Shown: positions 33,731 to 57,821 of the stretch, piece after piece | Position numbering within the stretch: the first letter of the stretch is position 1 | How the letters are laid out: each line of letters opens with the position of its first letter | NCBI GenBank assembly: GCA_022340465.1 | Contig: JAJDNW010000006.1 | Location: 7,530 to 71,529 of the forward strand | DNA from: Deltaproteobacteria bacterium | Lineage (GTDB): Bacteria; Desulfobacterota; Desulfobacteria; Desulfobacterales; B30-G6 | DNA length: 64,000 nt | Reading direction: 5' to 3' | Position numbers and translations under genes: made by a program | The notes under the pieces: generated by a model | Told to the model about the DNA's origin: nothing | What the model saw: the letters and a program-made list of their open reading frames with translations, nothing else | Database searches by the model: none

Positions 33731-33756
33731 CCGGGACGCAACAGGAGGGGAGGCCT

Positions 33757-35135: not shown

Positions 35136-35139
<4 letters not shown>
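33757..35139 (+). CDS. FAD-binding oxidoreductase (GlcD / D-lactate dehydrogenase-like, FAD_binding_4)
   Basis: VVMPGSTAEVRKIV...PLIPLGAGLVLSG FAD-binding PCMH pattern; C-terminal LDPNGIMNPG. ATG at 33757 after AGGAGGGG. Confidence 0.8.
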
Positions 35140-36308
<1,169 letters not shown>

Positions 36309-37709: not shown

Positions 37710-37973
37710 ATGCCAAGAATTGGAACTACCAAAATGTCTTCAAAAGGGCAGGTCGTAATACCAGAAGATATCAGGAACCAATTGAAGCTCAAAACTGGCG
37801 ATCAATTTGTCGTTGTTGGAGATAAAGACACGGTGGTTTTAAAGGCCATCTCACCACCACCCGTGGACGAATTCGAGTATTTATTGAAATATGCTCGTCA
37901 GCAAGCAAGAAAAGTGGGGCTGAAACGCTCAGATATTAAAAAGGCTGTTGCTAAGGTTCGGGGAAAGAATTGA
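37710..37973 (+). CDS. AbrB/MazE/SpoVT-family antitoxin
   Basis: 87 aa. SSKGQVVIPEDIRNQLKLKTGDQFVV looped-hinge-helix motif. Stop overlaps the toxin start. Confidence 0.8.
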   Translation: MPRIGTTKMSSKGQVVIPEDIRNQLKLKTGDQFVVVGDKDTVVLKAISPPPVDEFEYLLKYARQQARKVGLKRSDIKKAVAKVRGKN

Positions 37974-38371
37974 GAATCGTTCTCGATACCAATGTTTTTA
38001 TATCTGGTGTATTCTTCAGTGGGCCTCCTTATGATATTCTAAAGGCCTGGATAGATGAACGAATTCAGATAGTAATATCATCTGAGATTTTACAAGAATA
38101 TCAGCGCGTCGGTGAAGAACTCCAGTACCGATATCCTGAAATTAAAATAATACCCATCCTCAAGTCTTTTTCAAAAAATGCGATATTGATTTCAGCCCCT
38201 AGTTTGCCTCACCAGGTTTGTGTGGACCCTGATGATGATAAATTTCTTGCATGTGCCGTTGCAGGTAATGCAGAATTGATTATCAGTGGAGACAGGCATT
38301 TATTAGATATAAATGATTTTCAGAGTATCAAAATTATCAAACCCCGAATGTTTCTAGACGAATACCTATAA
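37970..38371 (+). CDS. PIN-domain toxin (putative ribonuclease)
   Basis: 133 aa. RIVLDTNVFISG (first acidic residue), ...DPDDDKFLACA, ...LISGDRHLL (PIN acidic quartet pattern). Confidence 0.8.
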   Translation: MRIVLDTNVFISGVFFSGPPYDILKAWIDERIQIVISSEILQEYQRVGEELQYRYPEIKIIPILKSFSKNAILISAPSLPHQVCVDPDDDKFLACAVAGNAELIISGDRHLLDINDFQSIKIIKPRMFLDEYL

Positions 38372-38858: not shown

Positions 38859-39452
38859 ATGGAGCAACCCATGGATCCGTTCAGCGTCGCCAAGGCGATT
38901 AAAAATCTCAGGAAGGAAAAGGGCTATAGTCTCAACAGGCTGGCCTCACTGTCCGGCCTCTCGAAAGGATATCTATCCAAAATCGAAAACGGCATCAATG
39001 TCCCCACTATTACCACCATGGCCAGAATTGCCACCGCCCTGGAAGTGGAGGTGACCTTTTTTTTTATGCAGCAAGGGGCAAGCAGCCGGAACCGGAAGAT
39101 GGTGATTGTCCGCAGTGACGAAAGAAAGGAAATCAACATCAAGAGTCCGGAAAGCGTCGTTAGAAAACGGTGGCCGCTTGCAAGTCAGAAATATGACCGG
39201 CATATGCATCCATATATCATCGAAGTGCCGGTCGAGCCGACTAATCTGTATCAGTTCGAAGGCCAGGAGTTTTATTACATGCTCGATGGCAGTATTGAAA
39301 TGACCTATGACGGGGAAACGTTTGTTTTCGATGAGGGTGATTCCGTGTACATCGATTGCGACCTTCCATATTCCGGACGGAGTATGGGGCCGGGGCCTGC
39401 CAGGGTGCTTGTGGTAGTCTACCATATGGGGCCCAAAGAAAATAAGGCATAA
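38859..39452 (+). CDS. XRE-family HTH regulator with C-terminal cupin sensor domain
   Basis: 197 aa. IKNLRKEKGYSLNRLASLSGLSKGYLSKIENG HTH. C-terminal YYMLDGSIEMTYDGETFVFDEGDSVYI cupin strands. Confidence 0.8.
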   Translation: MEQPMDPFSVAKAIKNLRKEKGYSLNRLASLSGLSKGYLSKIENGINVPTITTMARIATALEVEVTFFFMQQGASSRNRKMVIVRSDERKEINIKSPESVVRKRWPLASQKYDRHMHPYIIEVPVEPTNLYQFEGQEFYYMLDGSIEMTYDGETFVFDEGDSVYIDCDLPYSGRSMGPGPARVLVVVYHMGPKENKA

Positions 39453-39537
39453 AGGGCATCATAAATCATATTTTTTAGTTAGTTCATGTAAAATTTAAAA
39501 TAAGATAGGGCAATAAACAACCAAAGGAGAAAAGCAG

Positions 39538-40995
39538 ATGATAAGATCAAGCAGCGGTGGGATAGACACTGTCCGGTTTTTAAAGGACAGTGACATGCAG
39601 AAGATTCATGAGCAGGCGCTATACCTGTTGGAGAATACCGGCATCGGCATCGAGCACCAGGTAGGCATGGAGATGCTCGAAAATACCGGCGCTGTTGTGG
39701 ATTACGACAAGAAAACAGCCCGCTTTTCAGCGTCGCTGGTGGAAAAGTGCCTGGCATCCGTACCCCGTAAAATCACCCTGGCCGGCAGAAATCCGGAGCG
39801 AGACCTGATCCTGGAACCAGGCGGCACCATTCGGACCCGCAATACCGGCGGGATGACCCAGATACACGACCTTGAAACCGGGGAAATCAGAGAATCCGTT
39901 CTTTCTGACACGGCCGACTTTGCCAGGCTCTTGGACGGACTGGACAACATCGATTTCATTGCGCCTCTATATGCGGCCGACGTGCCCCTTGAAATCCTGG
40001 AGCTCCAGGTGCTGGAAACCATGATGTGCAATACGGACAAGCATATCAACATCCGGGCTCTAGACAAAAGGACCTTTCCCTATCTTATCAAGATGGGCGA
40101 GATCGTGGCCGGCGGTAAGGAAGCTTTGAAAAAGCGACCGGTCATCAGCATTCTCGAAGCACCCATTTCCCCGCTGGTATTCCCCGATGTTTTTGTTGAT
40201 TCGCTCCTTTTAGGCGGGGAGGCCGGAATACCAATCGAAATCTGTTCTATGCCCAACGTGGGCGGAACCGGACCGATTACCCTGGCGGGATCGCTGCTGC
40301 TATCGACGGTCGAACACCTGGCGACCATTGTCATTTCACAGACGGGTTGTCCGGGGGCGCCCCTAGTCTGGGCATCGCGCTTCCCGGCCCTGGACATGAA
40401 GACCGGCAACACTGGCATGCTCACGGAGGGTGCCCTGGTGTCGGCGGCGGCCGCCCAGTTGGCATCGGAACACTACAACCTAATCTGCGACCTGCACGGC
40501 CCGGCCACCAATGCTGTCAACCCGGAAGGCGAGTCCGTCTTCGAAGAGTGCATCGGTGCGTTCGTGACGGGCTTTGCTGGGCGCCCGGCCGTTCTGTGCG
40601 GTGCAGGCGGGATGGAGCTGGGCATTGCCACCAGCTTCGAGCAGCTGGTCATCTCCAATGAGATTTATGCGGTGTTCCGCAGAGTACTGGAAGGATTTGT
40701 TGTCAATGACGATACGCTGGGCATGGATGCCATCGCTCAGGCGGGGATCGGTGGCAATTACCTGGGAGAACAGCACACCCTCGACCACCTGCGCAGCGAA
40801 CGGTTGAATTCCGACCTGCTGAAACCGAAAACAAGGGCCAAGTGGCTCGAAGAGGGCTCTAAAAGCCTGGTTGACCTGGCCCGTGAAAAAGCACGCGCCA
40901 TCCTGGCGGAGCACAAACCGGCGCGCCTGGACGACGCCACCCTGGCAAGCCTCAAAGCACTTGTCAAGAAGGCACAAAATGAATTCACCGGCTAA
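39538..40995 (+). CDS. MttB-superfamily (trimethylamine methyltransferase-like) protein, non-pyrrolysine
   Basis: 485 aa, uninterrupted (no in-frame TAG). LSDxxxxKIHEQAL.LLE.TG., [23 protein letters not shown] blocks are typical of PF06253-type proteins as I remember them. Confidence 0.8.
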   Translation: MIRSSSGGIDTVRFLKDSDMQKIHEQALYLLENTGIGIEHQVGMEMLENTGAVVDYDKKTARFSASLVEKCLASVPRKITLAGRNPERDLILEPGGTIRTRNTGGMTQIHDLETGEIRESVLSDTADFARLLDGLDNIDFIAPLYAADVPLEILELQVLETMMCNTDKHINIRALDKRTFPYLIKMGEIVAGGKEALKKRPVISILEAPISPLVFPDVFVDSLLLGGEAGIPIEICSMPNVGGTGPITLAGSLLLSTVEHLATIVISQTGCPGAPLVWASRFPALDMKTGNTGMLTEGALVSAAAAQLASEHYNLICDLHGPATNAVNPEGESVFEECIGAFVTGFAGRPAVLCGAGGMELGIATSFEQLVISNEIYAVFRRVLEGFVVNDDTLGMDAIAQAGIGGNYLGEQHTLDHLRSERLNSDLLKPKTRAKWLEEGSKSLVDLAREKARAILAEHKPARLDDATLASLKALVKKAQNEFTG

Positions 40996-41065
40996 GCAAG
41001 AGACAGGTAAAACGCACTCTTTCCACAGATAGGAATTGGCGAAAATAGATAAAGGAGAGAACAAG

Positions 41066-42286
41066 ATGAAAGCGATCGTACTTGGCGGTTGCGGGGCCGT
41101 CGGCAGCAATGCCGTTAAAACCCTGGTGAAGACGGAGACCTTTGCGGAGGTGGTTATCGGAGATTTCAACGAGGGAAAAGCCTCAGAAATGGTCGCCCAG
41201 TTAGGCGGTAAACTGTCCTTCGTCAAAATGGATGCCACCGACAGGGCCAGCATCGCAACGGCTATCGATGGTTGTGACTTGGTTGTGAATTGTGTCGGCC
41301 CATTTTACAGCACCGTTGAAAATATTCTTGCGACGGTTATCGAAGCGGGCATCGATTATGTGGATGTGTGTGATGATCCCGATGTGACGCTCAAGATTCT
41401 GGAACTAGACAGGAAGGCCAAGGACGCAGGTATTCTGGCCTTGATCGGCATGGGGGCGTCTCCCGGCATCACCAACCTTTTGGGCAAACTGATCGCCGAA
41501 GATTTCCTGGACGAAACCAATTCTATCGACATTTTTCACACCCACGGCGGAGAGTCCATCGAAGGGGAAGGCGTCATCGGGCACCGTTTCCACTGCATGA
41601 GCATCGACATTCCCATGTATCTGGACGGGGAGCTGAAATACGTAAAGTATTTCGAAAAGGACGGCATGGCCCTGCGGCAGCTGTTCGACTTTCCGGTGAT
41701 CGGCAAAAATATACCGGTGTTTCCCTATCCCCACCCGGAGCAATTGACCATGCCGGAGTATATCAAGCTCAAACAGGTTACCAACAAAGGATCCGTCCTG
41801 CCCATTCCTTATTACGAGCTGACCTCGGAATTATGTCGCATGGGTTTTGCGGACGATGAACCGCTGATGGTCAAGGGGCATACGGTGAAACCTTACGACT
41901 TTGCCGTTGCCTATATCATTCGGGAACGCAAGCGCATTCTCGAAGAGACGGGGTTCGGTTCCCAGCGGGGCGCCATGAGCGTGGTCGTCAAGGGAAGCAA
42001 AGGTGACAAACCACAGGAATACAGAGTGCATATAGTTTCGTCGGATAAGGCGCTGGGCGAGGGCACCGGCATTCCGGCCGCCGTGGGGGCCATCCTGCTG
42101 GGTCAGGGGAAATTGTCCGGCAAGGGTGTTCTACCGCCGGAGGCCTGTGTCGATCCCAAGGAATTCATCGAGGTGGTCAAGCCACTGATGGACATGACCG
42201 AGCAGGCCGACGGCAAAGTAGCCGACAGCAGCATCATTTTCGAGCATGTGGATGAGACGGGCAACGTTACAGTACTCGATTTTTAG
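41066..42286 (+). CDS. saccharopine dehydrogenase-family NAD(P) oxidoreductase
   Basis: MKAIVLGGCGAVGSNAV Rossmann start, VVNCVGPFY, ~400-aa two-domain size. ATG at 41066 after AAAGGAGAG. Confidence 0.75.
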   Translation: MKAIVLGGCGAVGSNAVKTLVKTETFAEVVIGDFNEGKASEMVAQLGGKLSFVKMDATDRASIATAIDGCDLVVNCVGPFYSTVENILATVIEAGIDYVDVCDDPDVTLKILELDRKAKDAGILALIGMGASPGITNLLGKLIAEDFLDETNSIDIFHTHGGESIEGEGVIGHRFHCMSIDIPMYLDGELKYVKYFEKDGMALRQLFDFPVIGKNIPVFPYPHPEQLTMPEYIKLKQVTNKGSVLPIPYYELTSELCRMGFADDEPLMVKGHTVKPYDFAVAYIIRERKRILEETGFGSQRGAMSVVVKGSKGDKPQEYRVHIVSSDKALGEGTGIPAAVGAILLGQGKLSGKGVLPPEACVDPKEFIEVVKPLMDMTEQADGKVADSSIIFEHVDETGNVTVLDF

Positions 42287-42346
42287 TGGGGGATATAAAA
42301 GTAGATTGCCAGGGGTCAGAAATCCGGCACAGTAGAGAGTAAGGGA

Positions 42347-44044
42347 GTGTACCAAGTGGGCAAACAAGATGACTTTTACCCGGACTGGACGACCAGGGCC
42401 CCTGAAAAAGGCACCTACCGGTCCATATTCAAATGGGGTGCTCCTGATCGCTTCAAACACCCCAATGCAGGTTTTTACAGTCTTTTAAAAGACGAACTCG
42501 GGTTGACGGATGCCGACTTTCAAGAGAAGCGCAACCAGGGAAATGGCCGGGTGCAATGCGACATCCCCATAAGCCTGAACACGGATCAGGTTCAACACTT
42601 CAAACAGATTGTCGGCGAAGACAACGTTGCCATGGACGACTACTCCAGGGTGAAATACTCACATGGTAAAACCGCCGAGGAGATCATGAAACTGCGGCGG
42701 GAGATCGTCGGCGATTTGGCCGACCTGGTGGTGCAACCCAGGAACAAGAGGGATGTCCGGGATATCATCTCTTATTGCCATGCTCAGAAAATAGCACTGT
42801 ATGCCCGGGGGGGCGGCTCCTCGGTCACCATGGGGTTCAAGTGCACCCGGGGCGGCATCTGCCTGGATTTGAGCAGGTACATGAACAAGGTTTTGGAACT
42901 GAACGAGACCAACCACACGGCCACGGTCGAATCGGGCATCCTTGGCCCCCAATACGAACACGCGCTCAATCATGCGCCGGCCCAAATGAGGGCCAAAAGG
43001 CGCTATACCTGCGGGCATTTCCCCCAGTCCTTCGAGTATTCCTCCGTCGGGGGCTGGATTGCCGCCCTGGGTTCCGGACAGCAGTCCACTTATTACGGCG
43101 ACATGTATGACCTTGTCGTCAGCCAGGAATATGTCACCCCGGTGGGTGAATTCAAAACTCTGGATTTCCCGGCCACAGCCACCGGCCCCAAGGTGAACGA
43201 CATCATGAAGGGCAGCGAGGGGGCTTTCGGGGTTCTGGTGAGCGCGACACTGAAAATATTCAGGTACATGCCGGAAAACCGGCAGCGTTTCGCCTTTGTG
43301 TTTCCCGATTGGCAAGCGGCCGTTGACGGCACAAGGGAAGTCTGCCAGGGGGAATTTGGGATGCCCTCGGTGTTCAGGATTTCCGACCCGGAAGAGACGG
43401 AGATCGCCCTGCGTTTGTACGGGATCGAGGGCACGGTCATAGACAAGGGCATCGTGCTACGCGGATACAAACCGGGCAAACGGTGCATCCTGGTGGGTCA
43501 GGCCGAAGGGGCCCTTTCCTATGCGAAAAATGTAAAAAAGAACATCAAGAAGGTGTGCCGGGCCCACAAGGCCATGTACATCGGCGGTTACCCCATGAAA
43601 AACTGGGAACACGGCAGGTATGCCGATCCTTACATGCGCGAGGATCTGGACGACTACGGCGTTATGGTCGACACACTTGAGTCGAGTGTCGCTTGGGACA
43701 ATCTCCACCGCCTGTATGAGGGTGTCAGGGAGTATATTAAATCCAGGGAGCATACGGTTTGCATGACCCATGCCTCCCATTTCTATCCCCAGGGGACGAA
43801 CCTATATTTTATCTTCATTTCTCGCATGGAAGACATAGAGGATTACCGGCAGTTCCAAAGCGGCATTATCGAACGCATAGCGGCATACGGCGGATCCCTG
43901 AGCCACCATCACGGTGTGGGCAAGATGATCGGTCCCTGGATGACAAAACACCTGGGGGATCAGCAGATGAATGTTCTGAGGGCTGTTAAAAACCATTTCG
44001 ACCCTCACGGCATCATGAATCCGGGGGGCACCTTGGGGCTATGA
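42347..44044 (+). CDS. FAD-linked oxidase (FAD_binding_4 plus FAD-oxidase_C), alkyl-DHAP-synthase-like
   Basis: 565 aa. Long N-terminal extension with KWGAPDRFKHP, then VVQPRNKRDVRDII...ALYARGGGSSV, C-terminal HHHGVGK and DPHGIMNPG. GTG at 42347 or 42356. Confidence 0.75.
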   Translation: MYQVGKQDDFYPDWTTRAPEKGTYRSIFKWGAPDRFKHPNAGFYSLLKDELGLTDADFQEKRNQGNGRVQCDIPISLNTDQVQHFKQIVGEDNVAMDDYSRVKYSHGKTAEEIMKLRREIVGDLADLVVQPRNKRDVRDIISYCHAQKIALYARGGGSSVTMGFKCTRGGICLDLSRYMNKVLELNETNHTATVESGILGPQYEHALNHAPAQMRAKRRYTCGHFPQSFEYSSVGGWIAALGSGQQSTYYGDMYDLVVSQEYVTPVGEFKTLDFPATATGPKVNDIMKGSEGAFGVLVSATLKIFRYMPENRQRFAFVFPDWQAAVDGTREVCQGEFGMPSVFRISDPEETEIALRLYGIEGTVIDKGIVLRGYKPGKRCILVGQAEGALSYAKNVKKNIKKVCRAHKAMYIGGYPMKNWEHGRYADPYMREDLDDYGVMVDTLESSVAWDNLHRLYEGVREYIKSREHTVCMTHASHFYPQGTNLYFIFISRMEDIEDYRQFQSGIIERIAAYGGSLSHHHGVGKMIGPWMTKHLGDQQMNVLRAVKNHFDPHGIMNPGGTLGL

Positions 44045-44070
44045 AAATTCAAGGTTTCGAGGGAACAACA

Positions 44071-44116
44071 CATAGCCGATAGTGTATAGTTCATCGTCTA
44101 CTATCAGCTATGAACT
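44071..44116. promoter_or_regulatory. overlapping inverted repeats in the leader of the first FGGY kinase gene
   Basis: CATAGCCGATAGT (44071-83) pairs with ACTATCAGCTATG (44100-12), 12 of 13. AGTTCAT (44088-94) pairs with ATGAACT (44110-16). The two pairings are mutually exclusive. Ends 34 nt before the ATG at 44150. Confidence 0.4.
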
Positions 44117-44149
44117 TTCTGCTGATCACTCTTGCGAAAAGGAGGGTAC

Positions 44150-45745
44150 ATGAACAGTAAGGTTCAGGAAAAGTACATTCTCGCAGTCGATCACGGGTCT
44201 ACGGGCTTGAAAACGTCCCTTTTCTCGACTTCCGGAAAGAGTATCGATTTCGAATTCGAGCCGACGCCCATCACCATACTGCCGGAAGGCGGGGCTGAAC
44301 AGGATCCCGAAGAGTGGTGGCAGGCAACCATCAAAACGTGCCGCCGGCTGGTGGAAAAAAAGAGCGTACCGGCTGAGGACATCGTGGCCATCGGTGTGTC
44401 CAGCACTTTTTCCAGCACCGTCGCAGTGGGCAGGAACAGGAAGCCGTTGATGAATGCGCTGACCTGGGCGGACAGCCGCGGTGCGAAGTATGTTCGGAAG
44501 ATCATGGGTGGGGCCATTGAAATCGGAGGGTACAGCCTGACAAATCTCCTAACCTGGATTCCCAAGACCGCCGGTGCACCGGCCCTGTCTGGAAAAGACG
44601 ACATCGCCCATGTGCTCTACATTAAAAATGCCCACCCGGAAATCTATGCGAACACGCACATGTTTCTGGGCAGCAAGGACTACCTCAACCTGAGATTGTC
44701 AGGTGAATTTGCCTCTTCCCCGGACTCCATGACCCTGTTTTGGGTGGTGAACATCAAGGACATTGACAACCTGGATTACGATGACCGGTTGATCCGCAAG
44801 CTTGATATCGACCTTGGCAAACTGCCCCCCCTGAAGCAGGCGACCGACATATTAGGGAACGTCCGGCCGGAGGTAGCCGATGAAATTGGCATCAAGCGGG
44901 ATGTGAAGGTCGTGGTCGGTTCTCCGGACCTGCAGTCGGCCGGTGTCGGGGCGGGCACGGTGGAGGATTACCAGGGACACATATATATCGGTACCGGGTC
45001 CTGGATCCATTGCGTGGTGCCCTACAAAAAAGCCGATGTTTTCCATCAGATTGCCACTTTTCCGCACGCCGTTCCAGGTAAATACTACACCGCCAATGCA
45101 CAGGACATTGCCGGCGGAAACCTGGCATTTTTGAAATCAAACCTGATTTATTATCAGAACGAATTGAACATTCAACGGCCCTCCGATTATCCAGACAACA
45201 TCTACGACACCTTCAACAAGATTGTCGAAGGTGTCGAGCCGGGTGCCGGGAAACTGATCTACACCCCCTGGCTGCACGGGGAAAGAACGCCGGTGGACAT
45301 CAATTCCCTGCGCGGCGGTTTTCACAACATGTCCATTTCCGCCACAATGAGTCACATGATCCGAGCCGTGTACGAGGGCGTGGCATTTAATACCAGGTGG
45401 ATGCTTTACTATGTGGAGAAATTTATTAAAAGAAAAATGGAATCTTTGTTGCTGGTCGGGGGAGGCGGTAATTCAGATGTCTGGTGCCAGATTTTCGCCG
45501 ATGTGCTAGACAGAGAAATCAGGCAGATTGAGGATCCGATTCAGTGCAATGGCCGGGGGGCTGCGTTTTTAGCTGCCATCGCCCTGGGTTATCAAACGGT
45601 TGCGGATCTTCCCCGACTGGTGAAGTGTACCGCCACCTACAGCCCCAATTCCGATAACCGAAAAATCTATGATGAATTGTATGACGCATTTCTGACCATA
45701 TATAAAAACAATAAAAAATTGTATAAACGGTTGAACCGTCAATAG
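44150..45745 (+). CDS. FGGY-family carbohydrate kinase
   Basis: YILAVDHGSTGLKT N-terminal ATPase motif, GSPDLQSAGVGAG, LLVGGGGNSDVWCQIFADVL C-terminal motif. ATG at 44150 after AAAGGAGGG. Confidence 0.85.
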   Translation: MNSKVQEKYILAVDHGSTGLKTSLFSTSGKSIDFEFEPTPITILPEGGAEQDPEEWWQATIKTCRRLVEKKSVPAEDIVAIGVSSTFSSTVAVGRNRKPLMNALTWADSRGAKYVRKIMGGAIEIGGYSLTNLLTWIPKTAGAPALSGKDDIAHVLYIKNAHPEIYANTHMFLGSKDYLNLRLSGEFASSPDSMTLFWVVNIKDIDNLDYDDRLIRKLDIDLGKLPPLKQATDILGNVRPEVADEIGIKRDVKVVVGSPDLQSAGVGAGTVEDYQGHIYIGTGSWIHCVVPYKKADVFHQIATFPHAVPGKYYTANAQDIAGGNLAFLKSNLIYYQNELNIQRPSDYPDNIYDTFNKIVEGVEPGAGKLIYTPWLHGERTPVDINSLRGGFHNMSISATMSHMIRAVYEGVAFNTRWMLYYVEKFIKRKMESLLLVGGGGNSDVWCQIFADVLDREIRQIEDPIQCNGRGAAFLAAIALGYQTVADLPRLVKCTATYSPNSDNRKIYDELYDAFLTIYKNNKKLYKRLNRQ

Positions 45746-45760
45746 GGAAAGGGGAGACGT

Positions 45761-47041
45761 ATGAATACGAAACTTGAAGACGAAACCCGGGGGCATGAAT
45801 CGAAATCATCAGGCTATAAATGGATAGTTTTTGGGGTCATGTTTGCCATCATGGGGATCGTCCTCGGAGCCAACTGGATGGTCATGCCGGTACTGTTCAC
45901 GCAGATGTCCGAAACCACCGGCATTGCCTTGTCGGCATTTCAGACCATCTGGGCACTGATTCCGCTCGCCGGTATTCTTATATGCCTGCCCGCCGGCCTG
46001 TTGGCCGACAAATTGGGTGTCTACTGGGTAATCGGTACATCTTTGATACTCTGTACCGTGTTTGGCTCCCTGCGAGGGGCGTTTTCCTCTTATGCCGGTA
46101 TTGCCGCCGCCACTTTTCTATGGGGGGGATCATCTTATGTATTCATGGTCAACTACCCTAAAGTCATCGGTCAATGGTTTCCGCCGAACCAACTGGCGGC
46201 GATCAACGGACTGGTCATGGCTGCCTATTCCATCGGGGCCGCTGTGGGCATGTCCATATCCGGCACGATGATTTCTACAGCCGTGGGCGGCTGGCAGAAC
46301 ACCTATCACTTCTGGGCGGCCCTGACGGGATTGTGTACGATTCTCTGGTTTGTGCTGGTCAAAGAAAAGCGGGATGCCGCTTCGGATATGGGGAAAAGTC
46401 AGGAAGCCATAGCAGCCGAAGCCAGTATCGGATCCTTGAGCATGGTCGGCAATATTCTGAAAATCAGGGATTCATGGTATCTGATCGCTATTTTTTCTCT
46501 GTTGATGGGTGGCTGGATAGGCCTCACGGGCTTATTCCCCAGCATGATGGAGCAATTGGGGTGGCCCCGGGCGGATGCCAACAATTCCATGGCGGTAGCG
46601 ACAGTGGCCATGATTGTCGGCTGTGCGATTTTGCCCACGCTGTCGGACTGGATCGGCAAGCGACGATGGATTTTTTCAGTTTCCATGATGTTATGCGGAT
46701 TGGCGACCGTGATGATGTTTCTCGCTGTTAAAACACCTGGCAATTCCATGTTGTGGGTATCTCTGACGGTTTTGGGTTTCATGGCCGGTGCCATGCCCAT
46801 CATTCTGGCGATACCCGTTGAATTGAAAGCCATCGGTATCGGCCTGGCTGGTACGGCGGTCGGGCTCATGAACATGGGCAGCAACATCACCGGATTCCTC
46901 TTTCCCCTGGCCGGGATGTCCATGTTAAACATCGAGCCCATCTGGTCGGGTCTATTGTTCGGTGGTGTTGGTTTTGTGCTGGCGGGCCTCCTGGCGCTGA
47001 TGCTTACGGAAACGGGAGCAAAAGCCAGGTCGAAACCCTGA
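45761..47041 (+). CDS. MFS transporter
   Basis: 426 aa, ~12 predicted TM segments. LADKLG loop 2-3 motif. Confidence 0.8.
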   Translation: MNTKLEDETRGHESKSSGYKWIVFGVMFAIMGIVLGANWMVMPVLFTQMSETTGIALSAFQTIWALIPLAGILICLPAGLLADKLGVYWVIGTSLILCTVFGSLRGAFSSYAGIAAATFLWGGSSYVFMVNYPKVIGQWFPPNQLAAINGLVMAAYSIGAAVGMSISGTMISTAVGGWQNTYHFWAALTGLCTILWFVLVKEKRDAASDMGKSQEAIAAEASIGSLSMVGNILKIRDSWYLIAIFSLLMGGWIGLTGLFPSMMEQLGWPRADANNSMAVATVAMIVGCAILPTLSDWIGKRRWIFSVSMMLCGLATVMMFLAVKTPGNSMLWVSLTVLGFMAGAMPIILAIPVELKAIGIGLAGTAVGLMNMGSNITGFLFPLAGMSMLNIEPIWSGLLFGGVGFVLAGLLALMLTETGAKARSKP

Positions 47042-47058
47042 CCCGAAAGGGAAGCTGA

Positions 47059-48519
47059 ATGTTAAAGACACGCAATGGCGGCATCAAAAGTGTTCGGTTT
47101 TTAACGAATGCGGACTTTTTGAAAATTCATGAACAATCCCTTTGCCTGCTGCAGGAAAAAGGGGTCGGGATTACACATGAATCTGCGCTAAAAAACCTGG
47201 CGGACTGCGGTGCAAATGTCAATTTTCAGACCAAGAACGTCACCATCAGTGCTGGCCTTGTTGAACAGGCTCTCAAGACAGTACCCCGTGAAATAACCAT
47301 GGCTGCAAGAAGTCAGGAGCGGGATATCGTCCTGGAACCCGGCGGAAAAATGTATACCAGGAATTCGGGGGGCATGACCCAGATCGTGGATATTGAATCC
47401 GGAGAGATAAGAGATGCGGTGCTTTCCGATACAGAAGATTTTACAAGGCTTGCAGATGCGTTAGAGCATATCAATGTGGTGGCCCCTCTATACCCTAGTG
47501 ATATGCCGCTGGAAATTTTAGAGCTGTATACGCTGAAAGCCATGTTCAAGCACACGGACAAGCATATAAGCGTGCGGGCACTGAATCCGGGGACCTTTCC
47601 TTTCATTGTAGAGATGGCCGGAGCTGTTGCCGGTGGTAGTGAGAAATTAAGAAAGCGGCCGATTATCAGTATACTGGACTCCCCCATATCCCCATTGTCT
47701 TTTCCCGATATTTTCGTAGACGCCTTGTACACAGGCGGTGAATACGGGATCCCGGTGGAAGCATGCTCCACACCGAATATCGGGGCCACCGGCCCCATAA
47801 CTCTGGCCGGCTCCCTGCTGCTGGCCAATGTCGAACAATTGGCCACCATCGTTATCTCACAGTTGGCCCACCCTGGTGCACCCCTTATATGGGCACCGAG
47901 GTTCCCCGCAATGGATATGTCCACCGGCATTACGGGCATGCTGACGGAGGGTGCCTTGATTTCAGCCGCGGCGGCACAAATGGCGGAGGAGTTCTATCGG
48001 CTGATCTGTGACTTTCATGGTCCGGCAACCAATGCCATCGTCGCTGGCTCGGAATCTGTTTTCCAGGAGTGCATCGCTGCATTCGTGACATCTTTTGCAG
48101 GCAGGCCGGCCTTATTGTGCGGGGCCGGGGCCTTGGAACTGGGGATCATTGCCAGTTTTGAAGATTTGGTTATCGCTGACGAACTTTTTGCTGTCTTGAA
48201 AAGGTCCATTGATGGCATCATCATCAATGAGGATACACTTGGGGCCGATGCAATAGCGGACGTCGGCATCGGGGGACATTATCTAGGCCACGAACACACG
48301 CTGAAACACCTCAGGGACAATCGTCTGAATTCATTCTTGTTGAAACCCAAAACCAGGGAACAGTGGGTTGAACAGGGCTCTCCATCGCTCGTCAAGAGGG
48401 CCGGTGATAAGGCGCGGGAGATATTGAAACATTACCAACCTGGAAAATTGGATGAGAGAACAGAAAAGGAACTTAACAACATCATCCATGCAGCCCACAA
48501 GGAATTATCCGATAATTAA
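47059..48519 (+). CDS. MttB-superfamily protein, non-pyrrolysine (paralog of 39538-40995)
   Basis: 486 aa, collinear with the first copy. Long shared blocks ([62 protein letters not shown]). Confidence 0.8.
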
Positions 48520-48532
48520 GCAGGGGGTTTCA

Positions 48533-50116
48533 ATGCCGTCGAAAAATGAATTTGATTATGATTATATAGTGATAGGTTCAGGCTTTGGGGGAAGTGTTTC
48601 TGCTTTGCGCCTGTCTGAAAAGGGGTACAAAGTGGCGGTCCTGGAAAAAGGGAAGCAATGGCAAAAAAAGATTTCCCCGAGACCAATTGGAATACGAAAA
48701 AATACATGTGGTTGCCTCAACTGGGTTGCTACGGTTACCAGATGCTGACGCAATTGAAGCACGTTCTCATATTTCATGGCGGGGGTGTGGGCGGTGGTAG
48801 TCTTGTTTATGCCAATCAACTGTTGATTCCACCGGATGAGGTCTTTGATCAGCCGGAATGGGGTCCGGGTGATTGGAAAGCCAACTTGATGCCGCATTAT
48901 AATGAAGCCAAAAGGATTTTGGGTGCCAATCCGAGTCCACAGATTGGTATTGCCGACAAATACCTTCGCGAAGTGGGCATAGAAATGCGCGGTGAGGATA
49001 CTTTTCATAAAAACGATGTCGGAATTTTTTTTTGGAACTCCGGATAAGACGGTTCCTGATCCCTATTTTGATGGTAGGGGACCAGATCGCACCGGCTGCA
49101 CATTTTGTGGGTCTTGCATGGTCGGCTGCCCAGTCGGTGCAAAAAATACGCTGGACAAAAACCATCTGCATCTGGCTGACGGATTAGGCGCTCGAATTAT
49201 CCCGGAAACTGAAGTGACTGGGGTTTTACCGCGCAACGGTGGATACGAGGTTTTGACCCGCAGATCAACGGGTGTCTTTCATCCTAAAAAAACTTATCGT
49301 GCCGGGGGGGTGATCTTCAGCGGGGGTGTTTTGGGATCGGTAAAACTTTTAATGAAATGCAAACAAAAAGGTTTGCTGCCGAAAATATCGGATCAATTGG
49401 GCAATTATGTACGCACCAACTCCGAAGCCCTTCTGGGTGTGAAATCAAAAGACAAGCATGTAGACTGGAATGATCAAATTGCCATTACCTCGGGCATTTA
49501 TGCGGATGAAACGACCCATATTGAAATGGTTCGTTATAACAAGGGTTCCGATGTTCTGCTGGATCTTTTTACCGTTATGACCGGTGGTGGCGGAAAAATC
49601 CCGTGTCCTATGCGGTTTTTAGGAAATATTTTCAGGCACCCCATACGTTTTGTAAAGCTATTGTGGCCACTGGGGAAAGCGGCAACAACCACGGTTGTCC
49701 TGGTAATGCAGACCGATAAAAACTACCTAAAGCTTGACTACAAACCGCGGTGGTGGCGACTTGGCGGCTACAGCATGAATAGTAAGGTTCCGGATGGCTT
49801 AAAGCGAGCACCCGTCTATATACCTGTTGCCAACGAGGTTGCCGAACGCTTGTCTCGCAAGATGAATGGCATACCACTGAGCCTTTTGCCCGAAGCCGCA
49901 TTCAATTCATCCACTACGGCGCATATCCTGGGCGGATGCTGTATGGCAGAATCGTCGGACAAAGGCGTAATTGGGTATAATGGAGAAGTGTTTAACTATC
50001 CAAATCTTTATGTTGTCGATGGTTCGGTGATACCAGCCAATTTGGGTGTAAATCCAAGCCTGACCATTACTGCGCTATCAGAGCATATTATGTCTCAGTT
50101 TCCTGAAAAAGAGTAA
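48533..50116 (+). pseudogene. GMC-family FAD oxidoreductase (cholesterol-oxidase-like), disrupted by two compensating homopolymer frameshifts
   Basis: Three consecutive ORFs: [15 protein letters not shown]...EKGKQW / KKDFPETNW...GGGVGGGSLVYAN...HKNDVGIFF / GTPDKTVPDPYF...CGSCMVGCP...HILGGC...VVDGSVIPANLGVNP. The frame changes at an A7 run (48663-69; A8 restores) and a T9 run (49025-33; T8 restores). Confidence 0.7.
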
Positions 50117-50183
50117 GGGGCATTTCACACATGTGCGTCTTTTAAATATTCCGAGCAAACAGTAAAGATTGGGTGATGGTTTT

Positions 50184-51758
50184 ATGAAAGAGAAATATGT
50201 GCTTGCCTTTGATCACGGCACCTCGGGCATGAAGTCTGCCATTGTTGACAGCACGGGGCAGGTGCTGGATTTTGAGTTCAAGGATACCCCCCTCTATTTT
50301 TCCCCCAATGGAGGAGCAGAACAAGACCCACAAGATTGGTGGGAAGCGCTTTTACTGACTGCCAAAAAATTGGTGAAACGCAAATCAGTACCCCCTGATC
50401 AAATTGTGGCCATCGGTATTTCCAGTACATTTTCAAGTACCGTGTCAGTGGACAAAGATGGTAAGCATTTGATGAATTCCCTTACCTGGATGGATTCCAG
50501 GGGCGCACCCTTTATCCAGAAACATATTGCCGGATTTCCGGAAGTGAACGGACTGAATGTGTTTAAGGCTTTGAAGTGGATATCAAAAACTGCGGGAGCA
50601 CCTTCTCCTTCCGGTAAGGATGACATAGCCCATGTCCTGCTGACCAAACACGAATTTCCCGAAGTGTATGAAAAAACCTTCATGTTTTTGCCGAGTAAAG
50701 ACTATTTAAATCTACGGTTGACCGGTCAGTTTGCGGCATCATACGATTCCATGCATCTCTTTTGGGTGACCAACATAAAAAATATCAACAAGATGTATTA
50801 TGATGACCGTCTGTTGAAACTGGCAGGCATCGAAAAGGATAAACTTCCCTCCATGAAACAGGCTACCGATATTCTCGGGACCGTTTCTGCAGCGGTGGCA
50901 GATGAGATCGGCATCAGCCGGGATGTAAAGGTGGTTATGGGATCACCGGACCACCAGTGCGCCTGTATCGGGTCTGGAGCTGTGAGGGACTTTGAAGGGC
51001 ATTTATATATAGGGACATCTTCCTGGCTAGAGTGTATGGTTCCCTTTAAGAAGACCGATATTCTGCACTCTATTGCCTCCTTCCCTACGGCTATTCCGGG
51101 AAAATACCAGTGTGTCAATGAGCAGGACCTGGCTGGCGGCTGTTTAACTTTTCTTATGGATAACATTCTGTTTTATGATAGTCCTCAAATTCCTACGGTC
51201 GTTCCCGACGCCGCTTATGATGCCTTGAACAAGGTAGCTGAGCAAGTTCCGCCGGGCAGCGATAAACTGATTTTTACACCCTGGTTAAACGGTGAACGGA
51301 CGCCGGTGGACGATACGCTGTTAAGGGGTGGTTTTCATAACATGTCCAAAACAACGAATCGTAATCATATGATTCGGGCTGTCTTGGAAGGTGTTGCCTA
51401 TAATACACGCTGGATGCTTCACTATATAGAAAAATACATCGGCCGTCCCCTGAATCCCATTAGCATTATCGGCGGGGGGGCAAAATCGAGGATATGGTGT
51501 CAGATTTTCGCCGATGTTTTGCAGCGGGATATTCGACAAGTGAAAAATCCCATCCACGCGAATGCACGCGGAGCCGCCTTTATCGCAATGGCCGGGCTAG
51601 GTGAACTTACGTTTGAGGATGTCGCCAATCGGGTGCAATACGACGCCACGTTTACTCCCAATCCAGGCAATATCGAAATGTATAATGAATTGTATAAAGC
51701 CTTCATCAAGATTTACACCACGAACAAAAAGATTTACCAAAAACTGAACTGTCAATGA
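50184..51758 (+). CDS. FGGY-family carbohydrate kinase (paralog of 44150-45745)
   Basis: YVLAFDHGTSGMKS, GSPDHQCACIGSGA, IIGGGAKSRIWCQIFADVL. Collinear with the first copy. Confidence 0.85.
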   Translation: MKEKYVLAFDHGTSGMKSAIVDSTGQVLDFEFKDTPLYFSPNGGAEQDPQDWWEALLLTAKKLVKRKSVPPDQIVAIGISSTFSSTVSVDKDGKHLMNSLTWMDSRGAPFIQKHIAGFPEVNGLNVFKALKWISKTAGAPSPSGKDDIAHVLLTKHEFPEVYEKTFMFLPSKDYLNLRLTGQFAASYDSMHLFWVTNIKNINKMYYDDRLLKLAGIEKDKLPSMKQATDILGTVSAAVADEIGISRDVKVVMGSPDHQCACIGSGAVRDFEGHLYIGTSSWLECMVPFKKTDILHSIASFPTAIPGKYQCVNEQDLAGGCLTFLMDNILFYDSPQIPTVVPDAAYDALNKVAEQVPPGSDKLIFTPWLNGERTPVDDTLLRGGFHNMSKTTNRNHMIRAVLEGVAYNTRWMLHYIEKYIGRPLNPISIIGGGAKSRIWCQIFADVLQRDIRQVKNPIHANARGAAFIAMAGLGELTFEDVANRVQYDATFTPNPGNIEMYNELYKAFIKIYTTNKKIYQKLNCQ

Positions 51759-52497: not shown

Positions 52498-52773
52498 ATG
52501 AACAAACTCGAAGTTATTCAGACCATTTGTGCTCAGAATGGCCTCTCCAAAGCCGAAGCGACAAGAATCGTATCTGTCTTTTTCGAGCAGATGTCAGCTG
52601 CATTGGAAAGAGGGGACCGCGTGGAGATCCGTGGTCTATGTTCTTTTTACGTTAAGGATTATCCGGGTTATTCTGGTAGAAACCCTAAGACGGGAGTAAC
52701 CGTGGAGGTCGCGCCGAAAAAACTGCCATTTTTCAAGTGTGGAAAAGAACTGAAAGATCGGATGAATAAATGA
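52498..52773 (+). CDS. IHF/HU-family DNA-bending protein (IHF-beta-like)
   Basis: 91 aa. RVEIRGLCSF...GRNPKTGVTVEVAPKKLPFFKCGKELKDRMN, the beta-arm signature of IHF/HU. Confidence 0.85.
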   Translation: MNKLEVIQTICAQNGLSKAEATRIVSVFFEQMSAALERGDRVEIRGLCSFYVKDYPGYSGRNPKTGVTVEVAPKKLPFFKCGKELKDRMNK

Positions 52774-54345: not shown

Positions 54346-54520
54346 CTCAGATCAAAACGGATTCTCAATTGTTTTCTTGGTTTGTTTACCAACAGTCTCT
54401 GCATGGCGTAACAGGCGAAAACAGCATTTTGCGATGCAAAGCAAATGTCAATTAATCATTTCAGATCGGGAATCTAAACGCCCCTAATATTGAACTAAAA
54501 GCATTCAAACCGGCATGTTG

Positions 54521-57670: not shown

Positions 57671-57821
57671 AATCTATCCATTTATCGCATTGCCACCGCA
57701 GAGTCAACATGGTGATCGTATTGAGACACAGTTTGTTTTAATTAAGACTACCGGAGCGTGGAGCTATTTGAAAAGCTATTTAAACAATTGTAAACATTAT
57801 AAAATAAATATTATCACACGA

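Follow-up and report, generated by a model that had tools for sequence, protein, structure and literature searches.

A Desulfobacterales-type gene cluster that most likely encodes an undescribed anaerobic breakdown route for a methylated, glycerol-like compound

A cluster in which two MttB-family methyltransferases sit beside FGGY kinases and flavin- and NAD(P)-type oxidoreductases raises the question of which compound is being handled, and by what chemistry. An earlier note on this DNA had offered two answers: that the MttB TIM barrels carry out a corrinoid-independent reaction, or that the cluster degrades a methylated-amine polyol or glyceryl compound. We found the latter to be the best working hypothesis, although it is unproven. 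The cluster most likely encodes an undescribed anaerobic breakdown route for a methylated, glycerol-like compound, and we assign a probability of about 0.5 to a scheme that starts with phosphorylation of a methylated polyol or glyceryl compound and proceeds through B12-dependent demethylation and oxidation to a cleavage that yields dihydroxyacetone phosphate (DHAP).

Gene content and conservation of the cluster

Within the window (the whole 64-kb stretch of DNA that we analyzed), Pfam and NCBIfam searches recovered the nine genes that the earlier note had described, all on one strand and separated by short gaps of 13 to 87 nt, and HMM and BLAST comparisons upheld its family assignments. In order, the genes are as follows:

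38859..39452, +, XRE-type HTH plus cupin regulator of PuuR-like architecture (Pfam HTH_3 and Cupin_2; weak PuuR similarity)
39538..40995, +, MttB1, non-pyrrolysine MttB-superfamily methyltransferase (MTTB, PF06253, 255 bits)
41036..42286, +, Sacc, saccharopine-dehydrogenase-family NAD(P) oxidoreductase (Sacchrp_dh_NADP/_C; PF03435 and PF16653)
42347..44044, +, ADPS-like, alkyl-DHAP-synthase-type flavoenzyme (FAD_binding_4 and FAD-oxidase_C)
44132..45745, +, FGGY1, FGGY-family polyol/ketose kinase of the Sacc-partner clade (FGGY_N and FGGY_C)
45761..47041, +, MFS_1 transporter, weakly anion:cation-symporter-like, presumed importer (Pfam MFS_1)
47059..48519, +, MttB2, second MttB of the same clade as MttB1 (MTTB, PF06253, 260 bits)
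48533..50116, +, GMC-family flavin oxidoreductase, cholesterol-oxidase-like, with two frameshifts (homology; NCBIfam ChoxAB)
50169..51758, +, FGGY2, FGGY kinase (FGGY_N and FGGY_C)

This layout is best explained by one catabolic operon, or a pair of adjacent ones, in a sulfate-reducer-like anaerobe of Desulfobacterales type. The cluster was found again in five further Desulfobacterales-type contigs, and conservation of the neighborhood, a test that the earlier note had set, was evident in L002, L003, L007, and L166, where the gene order is the same, the XRE-cupin regulator again heads the cluster, and the MttB1 orthologs are 84 to 93% identical. The MFS transporter scored 75 bits against TIGR00893 (cutoff, 395) and is 92% identical to that of L166.

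The GMC gene (ChoxAB, 383 and 69 bits, under the cutoff of 850) is indeed frameshifted, carrying two ±1 homopolymer indels relative to the intact 527-aa orthologs of L003 and L166: a -1 in an A7 run (48663 to 48669) and a +1 in a T9 run (49025 to 49033). A tblastn search with the intact L003 protein split into three frame segments, and the sequence was also read directly. Since the middle segment, although out of frame, retains 75% identity to its ortholog, the indels are either errors of sequencing or the mark of an inactivation that happened very recently.

The collinear MttB and FGGY paralog pairs that the earlier note had pointed out do exist, but they are old (MttB1 and MttB2 are 61% identical, FGGY1 and FGGY2 57%), and the duplicated module of MttB, oxidoreductase, and kinase that had been read into them did not hold up. 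The first half and the second half carry unrelated oxidoreductases, GMC-FGGY2 occurs without MttB2 in L003 and MttB2-GMC without FGGY2 in L166, and the additional MttB found in L001, like that in L002, is no ortholog of MttB2. Such an extra copy was acquired independently at least three times among the loci compared. MttB2, whose L166 ortholog is 84% identical, has a GC3 of 0.56 versus 0.61 to 0.70 in the upstream genes, and it is a later addition to the cluster.

The MttB proteins and their corrinoid partners

The best solved-structure match of MttB1 was the pyrrolysine-containing trimethylamine methyltransferase MttB of Methanosarcina barkeri (PDB 7xcl; 196 bits), although the two window proteins scored 395 and 385 bits against TIGR02369, under the 525-bit equivalog cutoff. 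Both genes are free of internal stops and end in TAA, which bears out the absence of an in-frame TAG, and the pyrrolysine position is Ala in both proteins (A323 in MttB1), making free trimethylamine an unlikely substrate. The glycine betaine methyltransferase MtgB of Desulfitobacterium hafniense (PDB 2qne, 9yce; 176 bits) shares their fold and superfamily and likewise has no pyrrolysine. However, its four glycine-betaine-binding residues, Y97, R312, H348, and F356, align with G104, D318, C354, and G362 of MttB1, and in the GAG(G/M)xELG segment the window proteins are nearer to pyrrolysine-type MttB. MtgB R312 is reported to be conserved in MthB and all other characterized members. On these alignments, MttB1 and MttB2 belong to an uncharacterized clade without the acid-binding Arg, and since all four MtgB residues are missing, which counts against our preferred scheme, the substrate may be of another type and its heteroatom may be N, O, or S.

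Pfam scans of ~50 ORFs and six-frame tblastn (E ≤ 1) of the 64-kb window detected no corrinoid protein, in agreement with the earlier note, and no pterin-binding or URO-D methyltransferase, DUF1638 protein, or APH kinase; no second methyltransferase or activase was found within the window either. Genes for a corrinoid protein, a second methyltransferase, or an activase were also missing from the 8 to 21 kb seen around the close relatives L002, L003, L007, and L166. If the MttB barrels had abandoned corrinoid chemistry, these absences and the loss of the canonical substrate-binding residues would be in keeping, yet we consider this reading very improbable. MttB1 and MttB2 are full-length and nearest to genuine MttB, and their orthologs (60 to 65% identical) adjoin a corrinoid protein (PF02607 plus PF02310; MtgC-like, 212 bits) inside the MttB-Sacc-ADPS block of L001, L004, L005, L012, and L086. 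L001 additionally encodes a methyl-THF:corrinoid methyltransferase (347 bits versus an NCBIfam cutoff of 259) with a 66% identical homolog in L086; MttB relatives at 45% identity adjoin such partners as well; and Sacc is linked to corrinoid proteins in L034 and L043, the latter also holding URO-D and DUF1638. Given these orthologous clusters, the absence of a corrinoid protein from the window is local. Since no partners lie within 64 kb or around the close relatives, their being encoded in trans is an assumption, for which the sharing of corrinoid modules between systems provides precedent (PMC12478193).

One of the nearest known arrangements is the choline:THF system of Eubacterium limosum, in which MthK phosphorylates choline, a hydroxylated quaternary amine, so that the MttB-family MthB can demethylate it, and a corrinoid protein and methyl-THF methyltransferase complete the set (PMC12155760). 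There, as here, a gene for an MttB-superfamily MT1 adjoins a kinase gene, and the type-A relatives (L001, L004, L005, L012, and L086) mirror mthK-mthB-mthC-mthA with the order APH, MttB, further genes, corrinoid protein, and in some cases a pterin methyltransferase. The window differs in that its kinases are of the FGGY sugar/polyol type rather than the APH/choline-kinase type, it has no local corrinoid or MT2 genes, and nothing in the mth cluster corresponds to its Sacc, ADPS-type flavoenzyme, or GMC enzyme.

Sacc, the ADPS-like flavoenzyme, and the kinases

Across the 11 loci of this MttB clade, Sacc lies directly 3' of MttB in every case, and an ADPS-type enzyme with the R/R/Y/HHH set is present in 10, while phosphorylation and uptake are solved in different ways. 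An MFS transporter with FGGY kinase serves in the window, L002, L003, and L166, and APH with two FGGY kinases and a G3P-dehydrogenase-like enzyme in L004, L005, and L012. In L172, a galactitol/ascorbate-type PTS, together with HPr and a PRD regulator, takes their place, and the MttB-Sacc genes sit between the PTS components. In L167, an FGGY gene overlaps the MttB start, accompanied by an OpuAC-type ABC importer and GlpA/B-like enzymes, and the MttB relatives at 45% identity neighbor APH, choline-kinase, or PfkB genes.

Sacc scored far under every NCBIfam equivalog cutoff. In ~45 of 80 genome loci, a gene for an FGGY2-type kinase lies no more than ~3 kb 3' of a Sacc homolog, and FGGY2 is orthologous to the kinase found 3' of Sacc in most genomes, being 53 to 60% identical to those encoded next to Sacc in Desulfatibacillum, Desulfosudis, and Heimdallarchaeota, 91% to FGGY2 of L003, and 64% to FGGYb of L004. 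FGGY1 scored 244 bits against XylB (cutoff, 380) and is 25% identical to the FGGYa clade.

Among characterized members of PF03435, saccharopine reductase and carboxy(nor)spermidine dehydrogenase form or cleave the C-N bonds of secondary amines, and Sacc could, as its family name suggests, be an amine-oxidizing enzyme instead, which would count against our preferred scheme. Sacc would then be the amine-cleaving step: after demethylation by MttB1 and then MttB2, it would oxidize the secondary amine R-CH2-NH-CH3 to an aldehyde and methylamine (for example, 1-methylamino-glycerol-3-phosphate to glyceraldehyde-3-phosphate), leaving ADPS-like and GMC as auxiliaries. The weak matches of Sacc to these enzymes, its invariable place behind MttB, and the repeated recruitment of a second MttB, which fits sequential demethylation, speak for this reading. 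It is nevertheless improbable, as similarity to the amine-acting members is very low (41 bits versus a cutoff of 800), most Sacc+FGGY pairs have no demethylase nearby, and non-pyrrolysine MttBs are known solely for removing one methyl group from quaternary amines.

The ADPS-like protein best matched Dictyostelium alkyl-DHAP synthase (2uuu) among PDB entries (240 bits, E 6e-70), with D-lactate dehydrogenase at 93 bits. It shares with ADPS/AGPS (EC 2.5.1.26; Dictyostelium 2uuu, guinea pig 4bby) the FAD_binding_4/FAD-oxidase_C domains, an N-terminal extension, the catalytic Arg, Arg, and Tyr, and the SHHHG loop: R344, R431, and Y487 align with Dictyostelium R352, R447, and Y508, and H520-522 with guinea-pig H615-617, all invariant throughout our alignment (A2). 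The catalytic roles of these residues are taken from PMC3509576. Unlike ADPS/AGPS, the window gene stands in a transporter/kinase/demethylase operon of a strict-anaerobe lineage rather than among ether-lipid biosynthesis genes, and it has neither an acyltransferase nor a fatty-acyl reductase gene alongside. Shorter paralogs without the N-terminal extension occur in L002, L034, and L172, those of L034 and L172 paired with a CCG iron-sulfur protein.

Across 80 metagenomic loci, the ADPS-like enzyme most often has as neighbors a DAO+DAO_C enzyme resembling G3P dehydrogenase (52 loci), an FGGY kinase (43), and a regulator of the GntR/FadR type (38), and its family thus belongs to a widespread, undescribed operon of these components, whose logic of kinase, polyol-phosphate dehydrogenase, and DHAP derivative is what our preferred scheme requires. 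Brucella erythritol catabolism, with the FGGY kinase EryA and the GlpD-like polyol-phosphate dehydrogenase EryB, follows a matching course. Its path from polyol to polyol phosphate to keto-phosphate via a FAD G3P-dehydrogenase-like enzyme resembles that of the ADPS-like triad and of the type-A and type-C relatives, although the next enzyme here is an ADPS-type flavoenzyme rather than isomerases, and the window itself has no GlpD-like gene. EryA is cited in PMC3245297.

The same operon could instead turn over ether lipids (alkylglycerol or ether-phosphatidylcholine, e.g., lyso-PAF) by a reversed pathway, from alkylglycerol to alkyl-G3P to alkyl-DHAP to DHAP plus alcohol, with the MttBs demethylating the released choline-type head group. 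Relatives such as Desulfatibacillum make and live among alkylglycerol lipids. Besides the conserved ADPS catalytic set, this reading draws on the FadR-type (acyl-CoA-sensing) regulators that head the ADPS-like operon in the 38 loci and in L019 and L022, on the genes for an alpha/beta hydrolase, AMP-dependent ligases, and an acyl-CoA thioesterase that several loci carry close to Sacc-FGGY, and on the absence of a transporter from most triad operons. We judge it unlikely, however, given that the MttB-linked uptake systems (ACS-like MFS, PTS, OpuAC-type ABC) suit small hydrophilic solutes, FGGY kinases have no known action on lipids, and the window regulator is XRE-cupin rather than FadR.

A candidate pathway

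The cluster is best explained as a mosaic of three older modules: MttB/corrinoid, the widespread Sacc+FGGY pair, and the widespread (G3P-dehydrogenase-like)+ADPS-like+FGGY set. Since most occurrences of the latter two lack MttB, the linkage could in part be modular co-location rather than a sign of one pathway. A possible, if doubtful, extension of this is that the modules share no substrate, an ordinary quaternary-amine (e.g., choline- or phosphocholine-type) MttB set being co-located and co-regulated with an independent polyol or glycerolipid-backbone module of Sacc, ADPS-like, FGGY, and GMC. In support, MttB is missing from ~40 genome loci with Sacc+FGGY2, including those of Asgard archaea and Actinomycetota, and from 79 of 80 metagenome loci with the ADPS-like triad; the GC3 of the 3' genes differs, and 3'-end gene content varies between close relatives. 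Against this stand the constant MttB-Sacc adjacency and the short gaps along the whole cluster, the retention of the ADPS-type enzyme even where a PTS replaces transport and phosphorylation (L172), and the interleaving of corrinoid genes after the ADPS-like gene, not by MttB, in L004, L005, L012, and L086.

Under our preferred scheme of phosphorylation, demethylation, oxidation, and cleavage, the compound would enter by the MFS transporter, and an FGGY kinase would phosphorylate its primary hydroxyl to create an acidic handle, by analogy with the action of MthK on choline before MthB. Methyl transfer by MttB1 and MttB2 would follow, first to a corrinoid protein whose gene lies at another genomic site and then to tetrahydrofolate, a step suggested by their family membership and by corrinoid partners found only in orthologous loci. 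Oxidation of the secondary alcohol by Sacc and/or GMC would yield a 1-substituted dihydroxyacetone phosphate. Finally, as the conserved catalytic residues suggest, the ADPS-type flavoenzyme would deprotonate C1, form a flavin N5 adduct, and expel the C1 substituent, releasing the head group and DHAP, the latter feeding glycolysis. To our knowledge, ADPS is known solely as a biosynthetic, ether-forming enzyme, and a catabolic, head-group-releasing role would be unprecedented.

Also counting against this scheme, a G3P-dehydrogenase-like partner is absent from the window, where GMC, which could take its place, is frameshifted, and a quaternary amine would be an unusual PTS substrate (L172). In its favor, the co-occurrence of MttB, Sacc, and the ADPS-type enzyme is kept across three phosphorylating and uptake solutions, the ADPS-like enzyme retains the residues for DHAP chemistry, and its family usually partners a glycerol-3-phosphate-dehydrogenase-like enzyme and an FGGY kinase. 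The substrate is most likely a small methylated compound with a glycerol- or polyol-type moiety, N-methylated and quaternary, and tentative candidates are glycerophosphocholine-type compounds, deacylated betaine-lipid head groups (glyceryl-trimethylhomoserine and relatives), or amino-polyol betaines.

Gene content, integrity, and recurrence of the island

The earlier note had described nine co-directional genes, and ORF listing together with Pfam and NCBIfam scans recovered all of them. In order, they encode an XRE-HTH and cupin regulator, MttB1, a saccharopine-dehydrogenase-family protein (Sacc), a FAD_binding_4/FAD-oxidase_C protein (the alkyl-DHAP-synthase-type flavoenzyme, hereafter ADPS-like), FGGY1, an MFS_1 transporter, MttB2, a GMC oxidoreductase (GMC), and FGGY2, with intergenic distances of 13-87 nt across the island. 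Both MttB genes are uninterrupted and terminate in TAA, in agreement with the claim that neither has an in-frame TAG. The reported frameshift in GMC was also borne out, its reading frame being split by two homopolymer indels relative to intact 527-aa orthologues.

38859-51758 (+): the nine-gene island
47059-51758 (+): 3' part of the island
48663-48669: A7 run in GMC, -1 indel
49025-49033: T9 run in GMC, +1 indel
37710-38371 (+): MazE-type antitoxin and PIN-domain toxin pair, directly 5' of the island
52498-52773: HU-like DNA-binding protein gene, directly 3' of the island

The GMC_oxred_N/GMC_oxred_C frame that is broken in the window is intact in the close relatives L003 and L166, and the out-of-frame middle of the window copy is still 75% identical to its orthologue; the frameshifts are either sequencing error or a very recent inactivation. 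GC3 is 0.61-0.70 in the six genes from the XRE regulator through the MFS transporter and 0.56, 0.48, and 0.51 in MttB2, GMC, and FGGY2, and this lower GC3 suggests that the 3' part may be a separate, later acquisition. Rfam found no riboswitch or other RNA control element 5' of the island, and scans for promoter and terminator consensus gave counts not above those in shuffled sequence.

No database entry was identical to MttB1, whose relatives begin at 83-93% identity and continue in a graded series to 35%; the closest genome loci are Thermodesulfobacteriota/Desulfobacterales MAGs. The synteny that the earlier note had treated as a unit recurs in all four of the closest, window-type (type-B) loci. 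L003 has the window order without MttB2, while L166 includes MttB2 (84% identical) and ends in a carboxyltransferase gene, not FGGY2. L002 reads XRE-cupin, MttB, Sacc, FGGY, MFS, a short ADPS-type enzyme, and a different second MttB, and L007 reads XRE-cupin, MttB, Sacc, and ADPS-like up to the contig end. Since the flanking genes differ in every close relative, the island acts like a mobile cassette whose 3' end varies.

We also considered how the paralogue pairs arose. MttB1 and MttB2 are 61% identical, and the second MttB of L001 shares 72% identity with its own first copy, that of L002 55%. These second copies are independent recruits, so that a second MT1 has been gained at least three times, and this repetition may reflect demethylation in sequence or a pair of related substrates. 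The paralogue identities, together with presence and absence in L003 and L166, speak against a recent three-gene tandem duplication, and the idea of a duplicated module of MttB, oxidoreductase, and kinase was therefore dropped.

Corrinoid partners and substrate-binding residues of the MttB clade

The earlier note had raised the potential that the island is corrinoid-less and that its MttB proteins catalyze some other chemistry. Pfam analysis of approximately 50 ORFs and six-frame tblastn indeed found no corrinoid protein (PF02607 plus PF02310) in the 64-kb window, and six-frame tblastn found no pterin-binding, URO-D, DUF1638, APH, GlpD-like, or PTS homologues there. However, a corrinoid protein lies inside the orthologous cluster of five more distant loci (type A: L001, L004, L005, L012, and L086), in which MttB is 60-65%, Sacc 63-66%, and ADPS-like about 70% identical to the island proteins. 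In L004, L005, L012, and L086, with some genes missing in individual cases, the 5' part comprises MFS, a G3P-dehydrogenase-like protein (DAO plus DAO_C; G3PDH-like), the kinases FGGYa and FGGYb, an SDR, and a divergent sigma-54 activator, and it continues with APH kinase, MttB, Sacc, ADPS-like, and the corrinoid protein. L001 consists of MttB, Sacc, corrinoid protein, pterin-binding methyltransferase, and a second MttB; NCBIfam identified its corrinoid protein as MtgC-like and its Pterin_bind protein as a methyl-THF:corrinoid methyltransferase (347 bits, above the cut-off of 259), of which L086 carries a 66% identical homologue.

More distant clade members (45% identity) likewise adjoin corrinoid proteins. 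Given these neighbors in both the orthologous and the 45% loci, we conclude that this is a normal corrinoid-dependent MT1 family, and the partners are simply not encoded locally in the window and its closest type-B relatives. One corrinoid module serving two methyltransferase functions has precedent (PMC12478193). This precedent and the partners in orthologous loci make it very improbable that the MttB proteins act independently of corrinoid, despite the lack of a corrinoid gene in the window.

MttB1 and MttB2 each contain a full-length PF06253 TIM-barrel domain (255 and 260 bits, profile positions 27-499), and the M. barkeri MttB match scored 196 bits. The pyrrolysine column of M. barkeri MttB is Ala across the whole clade, MttB1 and MttB2 included. 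To compare binding sites, we used the 9yce alignment to locate in MttB1 the positions equivalent to Y97, R312, H348, and F356, with which D. hafniense MtgB binds glycine betaine (PMC13080624). The corresponding residues are G104, D318, C354, and G362, so that neither the acid-binding Arg (R312) nor the aromatic pair (Y97 and F356) is kept in MttB1, and the motif C(D/S/N)LHGPATN at the R312 position is common to all clade members. Given that R312 is conserved in all MttB members of known function (PMC13080624) and absent here, the clade is not assignable to MtgB, MtpB, MtcB, MtyB, or MthB. The Arg of a TRN motif (R101), three residues ahead of the Y97 column, is conserved throughout the clade and might bind an acidic or phosphate group. 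Because type-A loci resemble mthK-mthB-mthC-mthA, we considered whether MttB1 could be an orthologue of MthB (phosphocholine); this was rejected on account of the missing R312, and MthB was retained as a working analogy. To our knowledge, just about six or seven substrates are known for the very large MttB superfamily, and the characterized non-Pyl members all use acidic quaternary amines, held through one Arg.

Kinases, Sacc, and the ADPS-type flavoenzyme

Counting over 11 clade loci (the window, L001-L005, L007, L012, L086, L166, and L172), we found Sacc immediately 3' of MttB in every one and an ADPS-type flavoenzyme in all except L001 (10/11). The uptake and phosphorylation genes differ among these loci, with MFS and FGGY in window-type loci and APH, two FGGY, and G3PDH-like in type-A loci. 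L172 (989-11321) encodes a complete galactitol/ascorbate-family PTS (EIIA, EIIB, EIIC-GAT, HPr, and PRD regulator), with MttB and Sacc sitting amid the PTS genes; genes for a CCG iron-sulfur protein and a short ADPS-type enzyme come after them. It would be unusual for a PTS to supply a corrinoid methyltransferase. The Chloroflexota MAG locus L034 has the corrinoid-Sacc ... short ADPS-type-CCG layout in common with L172. Because both loci have such FAD and CCG pairs, we tested a GlcD-like and CCG pair at 33727-36308 of the window for membership in the island and rejected it, its identity being just 23-34% and the R/Y/HHH motif absent.

A phosphorylating step together with MttB is the constant theme across relatives. 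At L167 (7425-13452), an FGGY gene shares 14 nt with the beginning of an MttB gene whose product is 46% identical to MttB1, with OpuAC-type ABC importer and GlpA/GlpB-like dehydrogenase genes as neighbors, and the kinases near the 45% MttB relatives are APH, choline-kinase, or PfkB. APH adjoins MttB in all five type-A loci. No choline-kinase/APH-type kinase was found in the window, where the FGGY kinases share the operon of MttB1 and do not adjoin it. Experiments have shown a phosphorylating step similarly coupled with an MttB-family enzyme in the choline metabolism of E. limosum, in which MthK makes phosphocholine because MthB requires an acidic quaternary amine (PMC12155760).

Sacc matches PF03435 and PF16653 (68 and 40 bits), and its NAD(P)-site (GxGxxG) motif, LGGCGAVG, is invariant. 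Its best match to saccharopine reductase/carboxynorspermidine synthase reached 41 bits versus a cut-off of 800, giving no equivalence, and its PDB matches had E values of 1e-14 or weaker. FGGY1 and FGGY2 contain FGGY_N and FGGY_C; the best equivalog was XylB (244 and 273 bits, below the cut-off of 380), and no specific PDB relative was found for either. Searching genomes with the Sacc alignment yielded 80 loci (L006-L085) in taxa that include Thermodesulfobacteriota (among them Desulfatibacillum alkenivorans DSM 16219, locus L021, and a Desulfosudis oleivorans MAG, locus L019), SAR324, Heimdall-/Promethearchaeota, Bathyarchaeia, Actinomycetota, and Thermoplasmatales. In about 45 of the 80, an FGGY2-type kinase gene lies 3' of Sacc within ~3 kb, usually directly, as seen in L019, L021, L036, and L038. 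Both island kinases belong to this Sacc-partner clade, sharing 57% identity with each other, 50-64% with other members, and only about 25% with FGGYa and triad kinases.

De novo clustering of Sacc neighborhoods revealed no universally conserved partner besides the FGGY kinase. Other neighbors vary (TetR regulator, HAD phosphatase, thioesterase, and sulfatases); in a Bathyarchaeia MAG (L045:212-4400), a RuBisCO-like protein (form IV type, 440 aa) lies between Sacc and FGGY, and in an actinobacterial MAG the neighbors are DUF1638, URO-D, and a corrinoid protein. In L019 and L022, the Sacc-FGGY2 pair adjoins a FadR - G3PDH-like - FGGYa (- ADPS-like) operon, and the Sacc-FGGY2 and ADPS-like modules are thus functionally linked where MttB is absent, too.

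ADPS-like has VAO-type FAD and cap domains and is nearest to ADPS, not to D-lactate/glycolate dehydrogenases: it scored 240 bits (E 6e-70) to Dictyostelium ADPS and 186 to the guinea-pig enzyme versus 93 for the best D-lactate dehydrogenase, and it is alignable to both ADPS proteins across about 480 residues. With chain numbering verified against R352/R447/Y508 and T568/Y578/H615-617, the following residues correspond.

ADPS-like R344: Dictyostelium R352, guinea-pig R419
ADPS-like R431: Dictyostelium R447
ADPS-like Y487: Dictyostelium Y508, guinea-pig Y578
ADPS-like H520-522: HHH loop

None of these positions varies among 7 orthologues, and the short paralogues of L002, L034, and L172 retain them too; the ADPS catalytic residues are missing from the ordinary GlcD-like protein at 33727-35139. 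The HHH loop has a catalytic role in ADPS. Mutagenesis showed R352, R447, and Y508 of the Dictyostelium enzyme to be important, and Y508 is the proposed base for C1 deprotonation of the DHAP moiety, with a flavin N5 adduct and departure of the C1 substituent to follow (PMC3509576). Given that the catalytic residues are kept, ADPS-like is very probably built for C1 chemistry on 1-substituted dihydroxyacetone phosphate. The operon contains no lipid-biosynthetic partner genes, and its context argues for a physiological substrate other than the ether-lipid one. So far, we know of ADPS-type flavoenzymes solely in ether-bond formation of ether lipids.

Scanning metagenomes with the ADPS-like alignment yielded at least 587 relatives, and we surveyed the best 80 loci (55-71% identical) by tblastn mapping and de novo clustering. 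The dominant operon comprises a GntR/FadR-type regulator (38/80), a DAO plus DAO_C G3P-dehydrogenase-like protein (52/80), ADPS-like, and an FGGYa-type kinase (43/80), sometimes with a DUF362 protein added and as a rule without a transporter; MttB occurs in just one of these 80 loci (L086). This widespread operon, which belongs to metagenome loci L087-L165, may represent an anaerobic glyceryl-ether or 1-substituted-glycerol pathway; it has the logic of kinase followed by polyol-phosphate dehydrogenase in common with erythritol catabolism, to which it adds an ADPS-type step. The type-A partners were rejected as a true glycerol kinase and GlpD, FGGYa being XylB-like and the GlpD-like protein scoring 273 bits, below the cut-off of 360. 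We found no description of either the island or this operon in searchable literature.

A candidate pathway and the surrounding genes

We interpret the island as an MttB/corrinoid methyltransferase system that would operate inside an undescribed polyol-phosphate/ADPS-type pathway, its key biochemistry being hypothetical. The simplest reading to account for every conserved part has five steps, of which we infer the reactions, the order, and the substrate. A methylated compound ending in a glycerol- or polyol-type moiety would be imported (step 1) and phosphorylated at a primary hydroxyl (step 2). MttB1 and MttB2 would demethylate it via a corrinoid protein, passing methyl groups to THF (step 3); the adjacent secondary alcohol would be oxidized by Sacc, or by GMC or G3PDH-like enzymes in variant clusters (step 4); and the ADPS-type flavoenzyme would cleave the product to DHAP and the head group (step 5). 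The observed part of this model consists of the genes themselves and their conservation, the family assignments, the retained catalytic residues, and the corrinoid partners that orthologous loci encode. Candidate substrates include glycerophosphocholine, deacylated betaine lipids such as glyceryl-O-trimethylhomoserine (betaine lipids being an idea of the earlier note), and amino-polyol betaines, each of which we consider a long shot taken singly; for glycerophosphocholine, phosphocholine would be a good C1 leaving group and is also the MthB type of substrate.

More broadly, the ADPS-type flavoenzyme could be a catabolic, O2-independent "glyceryl-X lyase" that, across hundreds of operons in anaerobes, partners a polyol-phosphate dehydrogenase and a polyol kinase and is coupled here to a new MttB clade acting on phosphorylated, polyol-linked methylated head groups of the betaine-lipid/glycerophosphocholine type. 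This reading is tentative (probability about 0.3), and it would amount to a new anaerobic route for abundant algal and eukaryotic lipid head groups. Several observations sit awkwardly with the five-step model: a PTS serving a cationic substrate, the missing R312, the frameshifted GMC, and the absence of a demethylase from most Sacc and ADPS-like modules. The strongest rival explanation is a mosaic of co-located genes with no single shared substrate, which we think unlikely. The MttB clade lacking R312 is consistently tied to sugar/polyol kinases or a PTS, to Sacc, and to an ADPS-type flavoenzyme. The earlier note's proposal of a catabolic pathway built from these families is partly supported; its corrinoid-less and duplicated-module elements are not supported.

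If the five-step model holds, corrinoid-dependent demethylation would extend to polyol- or glyceryl-linked methylated compounds, and ADPS chemistry would gain its first catabolic role. It would also indicate how sediment and digester anaerobes degrade lipid head groups, for example glycerophosphocholine or betaine-lipid residues, without oxygen and without releasing trimethylamine. The island is relevant to research on anaerobic methylotrophy and lipid-head-group turnover. The analysis further exposed two widespread unannotated modules, Sacc plus FGGY and the GntR/FadR - G3PDH-like - ADPS-like - FGGY operon.

The window is otherwise that of a Desulfobacterales-type anaerobe, with an aldehyde:ferredoxin oxidoreductase, sigma-54 activators, sulfatases, and a candidate selenoprotein.

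9227-10255 (-): carbon-nitrogen hydrolase gene
10373-10447 (-): c-di-GMP-I-GGC riboswitch aptamer (RF03167, 64 bits versus a gathering score of 59), just 5' of the hydrolase gene
10694-12232: further sulfatase
30927-32282 (+): 451-aa CoA-disulfide-reductase/NADH-oxidase-like (Pyr_redox_2) frame with one in-frame TGA
31059-31061: the in-frame TGA
53230-63628: radical SAM/SPASM protein (possible anaerobic sulfatase-maturating enzyme), 1049-aa sigma-54 activator with GAF/TPR, fused TRAP DctM transporter, and 754-aa sulfatase

The ORF finder had initially called the Pyr_redox_2 gene shorter, at 31074-32282. Its TGA lies precisely where the codon for the redox-active Cys is expected (..CFIVR-[TGA]-ALPHVVAG..) and is a candidate selenocysteine codon.
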